Of a DNA stretch of 64,000 bases, positions 57,779 to 62,232 are shown in pieces. Each line of letters opens with the position of its first letter. Position 1 is the stretch's first letter. The notes below the pieces were generated by a model. The model was given only the letters and a program-made list of their open reading frames with translations, had not been told where the DNA came from and ran no database searches. The translations under genes and the position numbers were made by a program. Location of the stretch: assembly GCA_028868715.1 (NCBI GenBank), contig JAGWUB010000002.1:8430-72429 (forward strand), read 5' to 3'. This stretch comes from Patescibacteria group bacterium (GTDB lineage: Bacteria; Patescibacteriota; Minisyncoccia; Phycocordibacterales; UBA9973).

Positions 57779-58921
57779 TTAGTCATTTTCTCTTTCTCTT
57801 GTATTTATTCCAAGATTAACTCTGCCAGTTTGAAGATTTAAACTTTGGTTTCCCTTTAGAGAATTGCCATCATTTTCATTTTCATCAGCATCATTGTCAT
57901 CGTGTCCATGTTTTGCAACAGAGCTGACACATTGACCTTGGTTTCGGAAGGTTGGATTAGTAAAAGTCATCCAGCCACCTTTTTTACAATCATCTTTGCT
58001 TTGAGGACCAGTTATTAATACTGGATTTACAATAAAGGATGCAGAGATAGTGTGGTTGGCAGTAACATTACTAAAAGTATATGTTGAAACTGCACCTACT
58101 GAAACACTATCAACGAGAACATCCGCTACCCTAAAACCACTGTTTGCAGTTATGGTGAATATTTGGTTTGATCCACTGTTTATTACGACTGCACCTGTAG
58201 GTGATATTGTACCATCGGCACCAGCTGAAGCTGTGATAGTAAATGTATTAACCACTGGGTTTGCTGCGAAGGATGCTGCGATTGTGTGGTTGGCAATAAC
58301 ATTCGTAAATGTGTATGTGCTAACTGCTCCAACCGAAGTACCATCTACTAAAACATCAGCGACATGAAAGCCACTAACCGCGGCGATCGCAAATGTTTGG
58401 TTTTGCCCATCAGTAACTAATACTGAACCGCTTGGTGTGATAGAGCCATTAGCTCCAGCGGTAGCGGTGATTGTACGCAATGCAATAGCTGCACCACTTA
58501 CTGTGGTAAGGGCACCAGTTCGTGCACCACCTTTATAATTGTCAGACCATGTTCCAGTTATTTTTCCGTCAGTTCCAATTGTACCAGTTACATGAAGGAC
58601 TGTCTGTGGAGTGACCGCATCTGCCGTAGCTGTGTAGTTTGCAAGAAAATCAATTGAGTTTCCTGAAACAGTACCCGATGTGATGACCCATGTATAAACG
58701 TTTGTTCCTGCTGGACTTCCTCCATGACCAGTAAGGTTTCCGGAGCTATCCTGCACTAGAGACAAATCATGAGAATATTGAGTACCTAAGTATTCCATAT
58801 TCACTACATAGTTCCCCGTCGCGTTATATGCTGGAGCTGTAGCTTGAGCTCTTAGCGCGAAAGATGTGACCAATAATGCTAATACGACAAATATACCTCC
58901 AAATATTTTTATTTTTTTCAT
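57779..58921 (-). CDS. secreted protein: beta-rich N-domain, two B-repeat-like domains, CKKGGW..NQGQC tail
   Basis: Signal peptide; TITA.AGA.G.I.P.G...[17 protein letters not shown] occurs twice. Confidence 0.75.
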   Translation of the reverse strand: MKKIKIFGGIFVVLALLVTSFALRAQATAPAYNATGNYVVNMEYLGTQYSHDLSLVQDSSGNLTGHGGSPAGTNVYTWVITSGTVSGNSIDFLANYTATADAVTPQTVLHVTGTIGTDGKITGTWSDNYKGGARTGALTTVSGAAIALRTITATAGANGSITPSGSVLVTDGQNQTFAIAAVSGFHVADVLVDGTSVGAVSTYTFTNVIANHTIAASFAANPVVNTFTITASAGADGTISPTGAVVINSGSNQIFTITANSGFRVADVLVDSVSVGAVSTYTFSNVTANHTISASFIVNPVLITGPQSKDDCKKGGWMTFTNPTFRNQGQCVSSVAKHGHDDNDADENENDGNSLKGNQSLNLQTGRVNLGINTREREND

Positions 58922-59133
58922 AAGATTTAATTAATTAGTAATAATTATTTGATAATAGATTGCAAGTTCACAAAATCGACTCAGGTGAACCTGCAAATAT
59001 ATATACGTATCATCATAGTAAAATCTTTCGTGACTAAATTTTATGAGTGCTTAGAAAATTTTTGTCAAACGAAAAACAGGATCCACTTTTAAAAGTGAAC
59101 CCTGTCTGTTGTTACTATCTTGAAACACGTGAA

Positions 59134-59718
59134 CTAATTCCTCAGCCTAGCCGGATTGCCGAGCTTGTTTTTGTCGATATATTTAAATTCACCAAAGGGG
59201 TCATTTTTAACCTCTTTAGTGATTGCATATAAACTCCATAAGCAAGTTGGAGTACCCGCCTTGCATGCAGTGCCACCGTCGTAGACGATCTTGACGAAGT
59301 ATCTATAGCGATGAGATTTGCCGTCCGAGCCGACATACTCACCCTCAACTTGGTTTGTAAGCCAGCCTTTAGACATATCGGTAAGACCACCATCGCCACC
59401 GCGATCGAGGCGGTAGTCATGGTTGCAGTCTCTCTTACTCAACCAACTGTCGCTCCATCTCATAATTAACTTAATGCTAGCGAAGTCAGTACCCCCACGA
59501 TAAAGGTTGTCACTTATTCTGTCCGAGGTGTCAAATGTTCCCTTGAAGATATGTGACTGGTAGTTGTACCCGAACTGGTCGAAGCCCAAAATGACCTTGT
59601 TTCGAACAGCGTCAATTATGACGCCGTCTTTGATCTTTATGCAGTCTGCCTGAGCCCAGATTGAAGTTGTAAAAAGAACCAAGAGTGCTATTGCACTCAA
59701 AATAATTTTCCCTCTCAT
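59134..59718 (-). CDS. secreted hypothetical protein
   Basis: CAGGAG SD, signal peptide MRGKIILSAIALLVLFTT, GFDQFGYNY motif, 4 Cys. Confidence 0.75.
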   Translation of the reverse strand: MRGKIILSAIALLVLFTTSIWAQADCIKIKDGVIIDAVRNKVILGFDQFGYNYQSHIFKGTFDTSDRISDNLYRGGTDFASIKLIMRWSDSWLSKRDCNHDYRLDRGGDGGLTDMSKGWLTNQVEGEYVGSDGKSHRYRYFVKIVYDGGTACKAGTPTCLWSLYAITKEVKNDPFGEFKYIDKNKLGNPARLRN

Positions 59719-59725
59719 TTTAATT

Positions 59726-59807
59726 CTCCTGGAATTTATTTCAAAAAATACAACCAAAATGGTTGTGTATCCATAAAAATTATACCAAGATTACGTTCTT
59801 CTGTCAA
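59726..59807 (-). promoter_or_regulatory. sigma70 promoter, leader hairpin and SD
   Basis: TTGACA-17-(TGG)TATAAT; cacaacca-ttt-tggttgt hairpin; AGGAG. Confidence 0.8.
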
Positions 59808-59867
59808 TTACAACAAAAAAGCGGACCTCTGTTTAAAGAAGCCCGCGAATGATGTGAAAAAAACGAT

Positions 59868-60905
59868 TTAATTGTTTGCATGAACCTTCGGCCGGTTCGT
59901 GAATGATGTATCAGCGTCAATCGCAGCACCCGAAGGGTTAGATATGGTTTTACACCCAACACCATAGCCAAGACCCGAAATGGCATTGTTGATCATCTTG
60001 TCGTTGTTGCCAACGTCGGAGATGCCAGCCTGGTACGATGAGTTGAAGCATAGGTCGCTGGAGATCGTGTTGTTCACCGCTTTGATATTGGTCGCAGTAT
60101 TTGGAGCTGAATAATCAGCAGCAAGGTTGGTGAGATAAACGCCAACATCATTGTTGACGAGTACATTATCTGTCACCTTGGTATTGACTGTATACGGACA
60201 ATCATTACCATCCGGACACTGACCATACCCAGCACCACCAACCACAATGATTCCACCCGAGGCCGAACCATCGCCTGGAAATCCAATGTAAGAATTTCCC
60301 GAAACCCGATTTTTCATTACTGAAGCACTTGCGCCGTAACCTATCTGTATACCGTTCATGGCAATGAAGTAAACATGTCCGTCGCCGGTAACAGTATTGC
60401 CTTGGATCGTAGCCTGTACTCCAGTACCATTTGTGACTATGCCACTTTTTTGGTAACCAGTTACGGTGTTACCGGCAATTTTACCAGTCACCCCACCACC
60501 AGCGAAAAATCCACGCCAATAGATACCTACGCCATGTTGAGTACCATCGTGCGGTGACTCTCCGATATCGTGAATATTGCTATTCAAAATATCCAGCGTG
60601 ATGTCGCCAGCGTCGCCGTTAGCGACGACACCGAAGTAGTTGGCACCGTAGATCTCAGCACCCTTGATAACTCCGCTTGATCCTGGGCCGTAGTAGACGC
60701 CGATGTTGCAAGTAGTAGCATCCACCGGACCGGTGACCAACGTTGGGTTAATGAGGACCGCCGTCATGTTTATACCGTCGCGAAGGAATCCTGTTGGGCT
60801 ACATTTTGGTTGAGGAGGCAGCGTTGTTTGCGCCGACACTGTCATTGCAAAAGTTGTAAAAAGAACTAAGAGTGCTATTGCACCCAAAACAATTTTAATC
60901 TTCAT
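59868..60905 (-). CDS. secreted right-handed parallel beta-helix protein
   Basis: Signal peptide MKIKIVLGAIALLVLFTT; GNTV.G/NGIQ/NN.I repeats. Confidence 0.8.
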   Translation of the reverse strand: MKIKIVLGAIALLVLFTTFAMTVSAQTTLPPQPKCSPTGFLRDGINMTAVLINPTLVTGPVDATTCNIGVYYGPGSSGVIKGAEIYGANYFGVVANGDAGDITLDILNSNIHDIGESPHDGTQHGVGIYWRGFFAGGGVTGKIAGNTVTGYQKSGIVTNGTGVQATIQGNTVTGDGHVYFIAMNGIQIGYGASASVMKNRVSGNSYIGFPGDGSASGGIIVVGGAGYGQCPDGNDCPYTVNTKVTDNVLVNNDVGVYLTNLAADYSAPNTATNIKAVNNTISSDLCFNSSYQAGISDVGNNDKMINNAISGLGYGVGCKTISNPSGAAIDADTSFTNRPKVHANN

Positions 60906-60912
60906 CTCTAGT

Positions 60913-61007
60913 CTCCTGTTGAAGTTATTGAATTGATTTGAAAAAACACAGCCTGAATTGGCTGTGAATCCGAGAAATAATATACCAAAATTATGTTTGG
61001 TTGTCAA
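60913..61007 (-). promoter_or_regulatory. sigma70 promoter, leader hairpin and SD (paralog of 59726-59807)
   Basis: TTGACA-17-(TGG)TATATT; cacagcc..ggctgtg hairpin; AGGAG. Confidence 0.8.
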
Positions 61008-61062
61008 CAGGGTAAAACAAAAAACCACCTATTTATAGGCGGTTTTTTGTTATGAAGAATTA

Positions 61063-61245
61063 TTATTCGTTTGTGAGCGAGTTCTTAATTTCTTCACGCA
61101 ACTCTGGGGTGTCAGTATGGCCATGATCATTGATGACGTGATGCATCACCAATGGCATTACTTCTGCCTCTGTCCCCGATATCACTACCGAGCAATTTTT
61201 CTCACTCGGCATTTTTCTACAATCCGATACTTTTCTTTGTTCCAT
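61063..61245 (-). CDS. DUF1059 family small protein
   Basis: DCR.MPSE.NC...ISGTE.EV....H....HGH.DTPELRE. Confidence 0.8.
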   Translation of the reverse strand: MEQRKVSDCRKMPSEKNCSVVISGTEAEVMPLVMHHVINDHGHTDTPELREEIKNSLTNE

Positions 61246-61320: not shown

Positions 61321-62232
61321 TTAGTTGGCAATATCTCCCTCAAACACATCATTAGTTCCATCACTATTTGATTTATCTTGCCAATGGCGATATGTTAAAG
61401 TTTTATTAGAACTATTGTACTCAAAGTTCCAACTAGAATTATTTTCAGTTATTGGAGCTCCAAAAACTGAATGAATGAAGCTACTTCTACTTTTACATGC
61501 ATCTGAGGAAGTAGTGCAAACACTTGGATCAAAAGAAGTGGCAGTAACTGTTTCAGATACAAATCCCTGGAATTTACCTTTTATACCTCCAGTTATTGAC
61601 GTACCATGATGATTGCTTTGTGAACATTTACCAGGGCTTTCTCCATCAATAGTGATAAAGGTGCCGTCCTTATAGGCAGTTCTTACTAAATACGTACCAT
61701 CTCCATTTGCTGTTACTGTAAAAAATAAATTATAAGTATCATTTGCCCACTCAGGACCGCAAGATGAACCATCAGGAGATCCTGAGCTTATTGGTCCAAT
61801 ATGATTTACATATGTAATTGACTTTGCTAGGCCAGAAGTTGTATGCCATTCCCAGGGGAATGTGCCACTTATTGTGCCATCAGAAGCAATCGTTCCTGTA
61901 ATATTCCAAGTTGAACCAACAGCATATGGTCCTGTGTATGTTAAAGTAAATGATATTGTGTTTCCAGAAACAATACCATTTGTAATTAACTCAGCAGTTT
62001 GACCAGCTAATGCATATGGTGAATCACCGGATGGATATCCTCCAGTCCCTGTGAATGTACCATCTGGATTCATCGTAAGCACCATATCGTGTGAGTAAGT
62101 TCCCAAAACTAACCAAGTATAAGTTCCTGTTACATCCCAATTAGGCAATGCTACTGCATGCGCTGGTGAGGCCATTAGAAATGGAGTCAACACAAACGCG
62201 ATGCTAAGAAAAACACTTAATATTTTTTTCAT
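61321..62232 (-). CDS. secreted hypothetical protein; N-domain paralogous to 57779-58921
   Basis: Signal peptide; TG.Y...LGT.YSHD..L, G.VSGN.I.F...YT shared. Confidence 0.75.
   Translation of the reverse strand: MKKILSVFLSIAFVLTPFLMASPAHAVALPNWDVTGTYTWLVLGTYSHDMVLTMNPDGTFTGTGGYPSGDSPYALAGQTAELITNGIVSGNTISFTLTYTGPYAVGSTWNITGTIASDGTISGTFPWEWHTTSGLAKSITYVNHIGPISSGSPDGSSCGPEWANDTYNLFFTVTANGDGTYLVRTAYKDGTFITIDGESPGKCSQSNHHGTSITGGIKGKFQGFVSETVTATSFDPSVCTTSSDACKSRSSFIHSVFGAPITENNSSWNFEYNSSNKTLTYRHWQDKSNSDGTNDVFEGDIAN

Follow-up and report, generated by a model that had tools for sequence, protein, structure and literature searches.

INTRODUCTION

Arrangements in which a shared leader precedes unrelated protein bodies have been described in bacteria and phages. 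In Borrelia burgdorferi, the erp genes (ospE/ospF/elp) carry a conserved promoter region and leader-peptide sequence on open reading frames (ORFs) of independent origin (PMC10016077); they specify lipoproteins and represent one allelic locus present on many cp32 prophages, with many recombination partners. Morons of temperate phages are single coding regions with their own promoter and terminator and a deviant composition, inserted between genes (PMC4378225). In T4-type phages, PeSL cassettes place a repeated sigma70-like promoter, a stem-loop and a Shine-Dalgarno (SD) sequence before unrelated accessory ORFs, and recombination between the repeats could shuffle the modules (PMC2839356). In Mycoplasma agalactiae (vpma) and M. 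bovis (vsp), conserved 5′ untranslated and signal-peptide regions are followed by different bodies, with a terminator for each gene (PMC2268961); each locus has one promoter, and an adjacent Xer1 recombinase switches the genes.

The window analysed here, a 64,000-nt stretch of the genome of a member of Patescibacteria, contains two adjacent genes, A and B, that add to these arrangements. No description of such a pair in Patescibacteria was found in the literature covered, which was short on subscription papers. Like the erp genes, A and B have promoter region and leader-peptide DNA in common (72% over 174 nt, and 43/46 nt, respectively) ahead of mature regions of independent origin. Unlike erp, they are two chromosomal copies at a CAP-pilB locus, with no lipobox Cys, no prophage and no PHROG match, and their terminator is apparently common too; in place of the many copies and repeated recombination of erp, two copies were found in what was searched. 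They resemble morons in that, judging from sequence signals, a promoter and a terminator surround one coding region, in that their composition is unlike that of their neighbours, and in that they are missing from the same locus in the (distant) relatives sampled. In contrast to morons, they lie in a chromosome between cellular genes, neither a phage setting nor any viral relative was found for them, and the 16S rRNA of the host is without an anti-SD to match their motif. The A/B pair may thus be regarded, by analogy, as working like Borrelia erp genes built on moron-like units.

PeSLs also have a promoter, a stem-loop and an SD motif ahead of accessory ORFs, but number about 50 copies per phage genome, against two in a bacterial genome for A/B, and end at the start codon, whereas the identity of A and B peaks in the signal-peptide coding DNA. 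Joints between A and B of the kind left by PeSL mini-circles or exchanges were absent from the contigs of four runs from one sample, contigs in which rare variants are dropped. With vpma/vsp, A and B have in common the conserved 5′ and signal-peptide regions on different bodies and a terminator per gene; unlike them, each gene has its own promoter-like site and no recombinase lies nearby. The resemblance to PeSL and vpma is therefore one of outline, copy number, phage setting and recombinase all being different.

RESULTS AND DISCUSSION

Two GC3-rich genes between a CAP-domain gene and pilB

The host genome (600,548 nt in two contigs, 38% GC) carries A and B within a run of secreted-protein genes, with a CAP-domain gene on one side and pilB on the other. 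The features of the locus are as follows.

59074..59107, minus strand: intrinsic-terminator-like hairpin of A (z −4.4); its best match is the terminator of B
59134..59718, minus strand: gene A, 194 aa, an apparent chimera of a B-type N-terminus and a mature domain from a secreted Cys-containing family (GFDQFGYNY)
59664..59709, minus strand: putatively B-derived signal-peptide DNA in A, with the probable 5′ swap junction directly past codon 18
59726..59731, minus strand: CAGGAG SD-like motif of A, from sequence
59750..59766, minus strand: leader hairpin of A plus T run (weak fold, z −0.8)
59779..59807, minus strand: promoter-like site of gene A, TTGACA-17-TATAAT (12/12) with extended TG, a consensus match only
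59821..59846, minus strand: intrinsic-terminator-like hairpin of B (z −4.4), homologous to the one behind the sister gene of B
59868..60905, minus strand: gene B, 345 aa, a predicted secreted right-handed beta-helix
60851..60896, minus strand: signal-peptide DNA of B, codons 4-18 (43/46 against A), native to the lineage of B
60913..60918, minus strand: CAGGAG SD-like motif of B, from sequence, with a related motif in the sister gene on L052
60947..60966, minus strand: leader hairpin of B plus T run (fold z −2.8)
60979..61007, minus strand: promoter-like site of gene B, TTGACA-17-TATATT (11/12) with extended TG, a consensus match only
61016-61051: bidirectional terminator at the DUF1059 gene
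61063..61245, minus strand: DUF1059 gene, 60 aa, GC3 0.46, no SD; upstream neighbour of B

The stretch was spanned with 0 differences by one contig assembled from a run of the possible source sample, which is not an independent source. A sequence-only reading of this DNA had described the mature regions as richer in GC than the host, and at third codon positions the two genes are: GC3 was 0.52 (rank 4/575) and 0.46 (rank 20/575) for the A/B pair, against a genome mean of 0.32 and values of 0.25 and 0.22 for the secreted genes on either side. The DUF1059 gene is perhaps part of one islet with A and B. The low-GC3 genes that border the islet (57779-58921 and 61321-62232) are 34% identical over 191 aa, so that A and B, together with the DUF1059 gene, stand between two paralogues. 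The first of these neighbours (380 aa) has a C-terminal Cys-Gly-Trp tail, and a gene with a similar tail lies just upstream of the B-family gene at L059.

Among the loci listed from 20 relatives (region around the CAP gene), the content of the CAP-pilB interval varies between genomes. These relatives are distant, their CAP proteins being 38-68% identical. The corresponding locus was without A and B in 19 relatives, apart from an A-family gene with a different front end in one of these, G203. Within the genus, B was found in 0/211 genomes and the A family in 2/211, tallies that may take in three genomes flagged as unpublished (G130, G122 and G060), on which no specific claim depends. No recombinase was found at the A/B locus, the genome's one tyrosine recombinase (a PF00589 match) being on the other contig, and the viral contigs searched contained no relative of A or B. 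Neither gene had a match in PHROG or NCBIfam or a significant one in Pfam, and each of six Rfam matches fell below the gathering score. A separate GC3-rich island (G000 C1:216157-226244) contains serine-recombinase-like and restriction-modification-like genes, as judged by N-terminal sequence only.

The common front end extends from the promoter into codon 18

The front ends of A and B are 72.4% identical over 174 columns (E = 2.8e-21), and no third full copy occurs anywhere in the 600,548-nt genome. The −35 boxes begin at 59807 and 61007 (minus strand), a spacing of 1200; the earlier account of the promoters (TTGACA-17, extended TG, 1200 bp apart) was correct in coordinates and counts. Identity amounted to 22/29 in the promoter, 9/15 in the spacer and 12/16 from SD to start, and to 6/20 (ungapped) in the 20 nt upstream of the −35 box. 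The leader hairpins have the sequences previously given and differ by a compensatory A-T/G-C pair; the fold holds for B (z −2.8), that of A reaching just z −0.8. The CAGGAG described as an SD is likewise present in both genes, but is to be read as a motif only, because the host 16S tail is without CCTCC.

The signal-peptide DNA (59664-59709 and 60851-60896) was identical at 43/46 nt when recounted, as had been reported, codons 4-18 differing at 3 nt, and the identity ends abruptly past codon 18. Third positions were identical in 14/15 cases, against ~70% of non-coding positions (P about 0.035), which hints at later gene conversion or constraint, beyond one event. The shared DNA contains a small hairpin with a T-rich run behind it (59683-59698 and 60870-60885), and one of the three differences makes a stem pair G-U; the hairpin could represent a constraint on DNA or RNA. 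Leaving pilin N-termini aside, A and B were the only pair among 650 called genes to be similar from the promoter into the coding region with unrelated mature parts. The predicted cleavage sites are, by eye, of the Ala type, with no lipobox Cys there, and both proteins have a Cys shortly past the site.

The mature regions belong to separate families

The B family gave 1722 matches among 8000 scored candidates, with identities of up to about 82% (metagenomic proteins); some of these relatives are labelled Pyrinomonadaceae and many carry PF13229. The model of B (pLDDT 93.5) shows the repeated short strands of a parallel beta-helix, and the top Foldseek rows were beta-helix tailspikes and glycan enzymes (E 0.001-0.01, 8-14% identity). 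B is predicted to bind or cleave polysaccharide.

For A, 43 of 120 candidates matched, with 34-58% identity, itself aside; it was 57-58% identical to members that have other signal peptides. Its model (pLDDT 77) has few long strands; Foldseek returned no match at E 0.001 and the Atlas hits were under 0.9. A likeness to a barrel sheet was set aside (best VIA Z 6.5, rmsd 5.4, 90 aligned). The prediction for A is a binding protein with disulfide bonds, located at the surface or secreted. In one relative (P0043), the A-family domain and a C-type lectin domain (PF00059) occur in one protein, a fusion that may point to binding outside the cell as the function of this family.

The mature regions had been called apparently non-homologous; by profile comparison and predicted fold they are indeed unrelated, and lie in separate families. 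The A and B profiles aligned at the signal-peptide end only (probability 56%), and no A-family gene was present in the 56 B-family loci (277,767 nt). A donor genome was sought in the sampled phylum of G609 (Acidobacteriota, according to L022) and was not found there: the A family was present in 1/251 genomes, and B at 1e-60 in 1/251. Of five B-bearing genomes, none had A.

The signal peptide and terminator of B travel with its body

The B-family tree was built from mature regions only by a quick method, with 114/120 rows kept and six dropped (short, or without the first motif). The sister of B was P0046 (SH-aLRT 86, a node under 95), the two falling in a group in which some clusters contain proteins labelled Pyrinomonadaceae. 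P0046 also had the best-matching signal peptide among 119 B relatives, with a score of 50 where the runner-up had 41 and the median was 19; the best among 42 A relatives scored 32-34.

At the P0046-cluster locus (L052; flank 52% GC, DUF4126 neighbour), the SD plus signal-peptide DNA ranked first of 30 scorable B-family loci (40 vs a median of 16) and scored 42 against that of A (median 17.5). Its terminator region ranked first of 50 scorable loci (34 vs a median of 14), a score reached by 0/1000 shuffles, none of which exceeded 28; in total, 56 B-family loci (277,767 nt) were examined. The upstream region of L052 (about 100 nt) was unlike the promoter-leader, 996/1000 shuffles scoring equally. 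The sister gene thus carries an SD motif, a signal peptide and a terminator like those of B. These rankings indicate that the body of B moved jointly with its SD, its signal peptide and its terminator, and that A carries the N-terminus of B and not vice versa. They go against the earlier idea of a conserved front end owned by the host, since the SD and signal peptide belong to the lineage of B.

One duplication and one body replacement as the probable history

The terminators were compared with all 109 terminator-like sites found behind 2277 genes. The two had previously been described as similar and centred on TTTAAA, and their likeness exceeds this background: TTTAAA occurred at the hairpin centre in 2/109 sites, exactly those of A and B. 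The terminator of A ranked that of B first of 108 in all three scoring schemes; that of B ranked A's first by global scoring only, three and five of 108 scoring equally in the two local schemes. Since the best match of A's terminator among 108 others is that of B, the whole unit was probably duplicated once. TTGACA follows close behind the T run of both terminators, as expected for a tandem unit. Taken together, the evidence of the sequences, strong at the 5′ end and moderate at the 3′ end, favours duplication from promoter to terminator. The L052 terminator had that of B as its first match of 109, A's being matched equally by 29/109; it thus resembles B's and not A's, so A has the AT-shifted state of B. 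GC3 over codons 1-19 was 0.21-0.26 in A and B against 0.42 in L052, which suggests that the frame may already have been AT-shifted by the time of copying.

On balance, the probable history is that an imported unit, B, was tandem-duplicated once and that the mature region of the downstream copy was replaced in frame by the domain of another foreign gene. The SD, signal peptide, beta-helix and terminator of B would have arrived jointly from a GC-richer lineage near Pyrinomonadaceae-labelled sequences; for this step the homology was observed, while direction and donor are conjectural. A consensus promoter and leader hairpin would then have been joined ahead of the B unit, and the whole duplicated from promoter to terminator, as the similarity of A and B at both ends suggests. 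Ordinary homeologous or illegitimate recombination may have placed an A-family mature domain in one copy, the join falling at the end of the hydrophobic core of the signal peptide. A and B are predicted to be transcription units of their own, with products exported by Sec, A having moved towards positive charge since then, by drift or by selection. The pair is a real feature, probably produced by a single event. It illustrates cleanly and traceably how a foreign domain placed in a copied promoter-to-terminator frame, the source of which is identified, gives a new exported protein; the mechanism is an ordinary one unless repeated swapping proves true.

A possible though rather doubtful alternative is that A and B were inserted side by side in separate events, that A acquired just the 5′ end of B, from the promoter through codon 18, in a partial duplication or a gene conversion, and that the terminators are alike by chance. 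The 5′ similarity is indeed far above the 3′ similarity, the 46-nt tract exceeds its surroundings in identity as a conversion tract would, and the A-family genes of other Patescibacteria come singly, with their own promoter and terminator. A chance likeness of the terminators is, however, difficult to reconcile with B's terminator being the top match of A's, out of 108, whichever of the three schemes is used, and with a loop common to just 2/109 sites.

Searches for further cargos

The sequence-only reading had proposed a recurring capture or diversification system, in which an expression and export frame is kept and foreign mature domains are swapped in. We consider this unlikely. In its favour, both frame ends seem to be retained around the new body; the signal peptide of B and P0046 is unlike that of their Pyrinomonadaceae-type tree neighbours and may represent an earlier swap; and another genome (G205) contains a further pair of unrelated SD-led ORFs with a common 56-nt structured leader (84%), within a group of three short GC-rich SD-led ORFs (L152:7150-7973). 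However, the search for downstream cargos that had been suggested yielded two copies of the front end only. There was no third cargo in the genome, an extra host match (C1:257740) being antisense within a glycosyltransferase gene. Genomes of the same genus gave weak matches of 18-47 nt only (32/150), with no real copy; the best of them (G063) lies inside a coding region. The signal-peptide DNA pattern had 0 matches in viral and metagenome collections, searched as an exact pattern that sees close kin only.

A survey of front-end pairs in the host genome plus 1.56 Mb from 20 relatives (2277 genes) was no more favourable. Homologous bodies were found in 653/661 pairs, and A/B was the only SD-led pair among the eight others; the remaining seven appear to reflect wrongly called starts, neighbouring genes or weak orthology. 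Within genomes, sharing confined to the upstream region was not enriched in SD-led genes (2/104 vs 26/2116, P = 0.38); with A and B added, both of which the filter had dropped, it became 4/104 (P = 0.049). The only tyrosine recombinase is on another contig, and no junction variant appeared in the contigs of four runs from one sample, in which rare variants are dropped. Of the earlier proposal, the foreign look of the domains and, probably, one in-frame swap stand, but repeated swapping is not supported: no other cargo was found behind the front end in the host, in 150 genomes of the genus or in the viral and metagenome collections, an outcome that the reading itself had named as counting against its idea. 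As the relatives sampled are distant and an exact pattern sees close kin only, recurrence elsewhere in the phylum is conceivable. Nor was the front end seen to be reused, the A-family genes of other Patescibacteria having unrelated front ends and the locus no recombinase.

A broader form of the proposal, which we regard as improbable, is that Patescibacteria without an anti-SD keep a class of SD-led frames for expression and export, which undergo duplication and receive foreign, fast-evolving domains time and again, the SD being kept because it still works, via a non-pairing route or on the ribosomes of another cell. If this were true, A/B would show such a replacement at the moment when both ends of the frame are still in place.

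It is very improbable that the shared parts arose independently, as no more than unspecific signals for strong expression and ordinary hydrophobic signal peptides. AGGAG, hairpins and consensus promoters do recur across the SD-led class, but the similarity (E = 2.8e-21 over 174 nt) includes the spacer (9/15) and third codon positions (14/15), and none of the 105 SD-led genes otherwise matches the A/B front end; identity at synonymous sites rules this origin out. A simple tandem duplication, leaving A and B as distant paralogues with mature parts diverged past recognition, would suit their adjacency, common strand, likeness at both ends and early Cys, but was likewise ruled out, by family membership: each body is in its own conserved family (43 and 1722 matches), A is 57-58% identical to proteins with other signal peptides, no A-family match occurred in 56 B-family loci, and the profile and fold comparison, carried out as earlier advised, showed the mature domains to differ.

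A and B as members of an SD-led gene class

The host 16S tail is without CCTCC after helix 45, and CCTCC is also absent in G203 and G114; of the five genomes probed for their 16S tails, two had the helix 45 motif assembled. This agrees with the anti-SD loss reported for a subgroup of Parcubacteria (PMC9297842). SD-like motifs precede just 27/575 host genes, and in 29/65 consensus promoters the start codon lies 6-10 nt past the −10 box, as in leaderless genes.

In the set of 2277 genes, the GC3 of SD-led genes was 0.10 above the median of their own genome (105 vs 2172 genes), and terminators were commoner behind them (21/105 vs 88/2172). In a partial sample, 7/59 GC3-rich SD-led genes had a homologue elsewhere. 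A and B belong to this moron-like, GC3-rich, SD-led cassette class. A motif of the GTTCTTT(G/A) type, which resembles boxA, occurred in 10/105 SD-led leaders against 20/2172 others; A and B have a degenerate form only. For one cassette at least, the SD motif of a Patescibacterium without anti-SD can thus be inherited from a donor together with a signal peptide and terminator, and such inheritance would explain part of the SD-led class (105/2277, GC3 +0.10). As one leader copied onto two bodies, the A/B pair provides a direct test case for SD-led translation.

Distribution and later evolution of the A family

A-family genes were found elsewhere in 2/211 genomes of the genus and 5/400 of the order. 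They have their own unrelated front ends, some being SD-led and GC3-rich (up to 0.86) and some host-like. The gene in G203 (L051:10328-10939; GC3 0.80, with an SD) lies inside a stretch of 35% GC. It adjoins genes homologous to two at the A/B locus, the large secreted gene and the CAP gene; its orientation is opposite and its front end differs, and it probably reached this locus independently.

The terminal branch of A (0.62) is long compared with those of its three nearest relatives (P0002-P0004; 0.09-0.22), and A is the sole net-basic member of 42 (+3; the others, −5 to −17). At the 109 sites where the three nearest relatives agree, A deviates at 28; ten of these changes are gains of K or R (P = 0.0008 vs the K+R share of the genome). 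Its four Cys and reading frame are intact, the chance of no stop under neutrality being 0.17 to 0.01. Selection for a new surface charge would therefore seem somewhat more likely than decay as the origin of the basic shift. In another genome, tandem A-family genes (L105/L107, G576:C2:11136-14753) have near-duplicate terminators; the downstream copy is diverged, with a net charge of 0 vs −17 and FNG changed to FKG as in gene A, and may thus parallel the basic shift of A.
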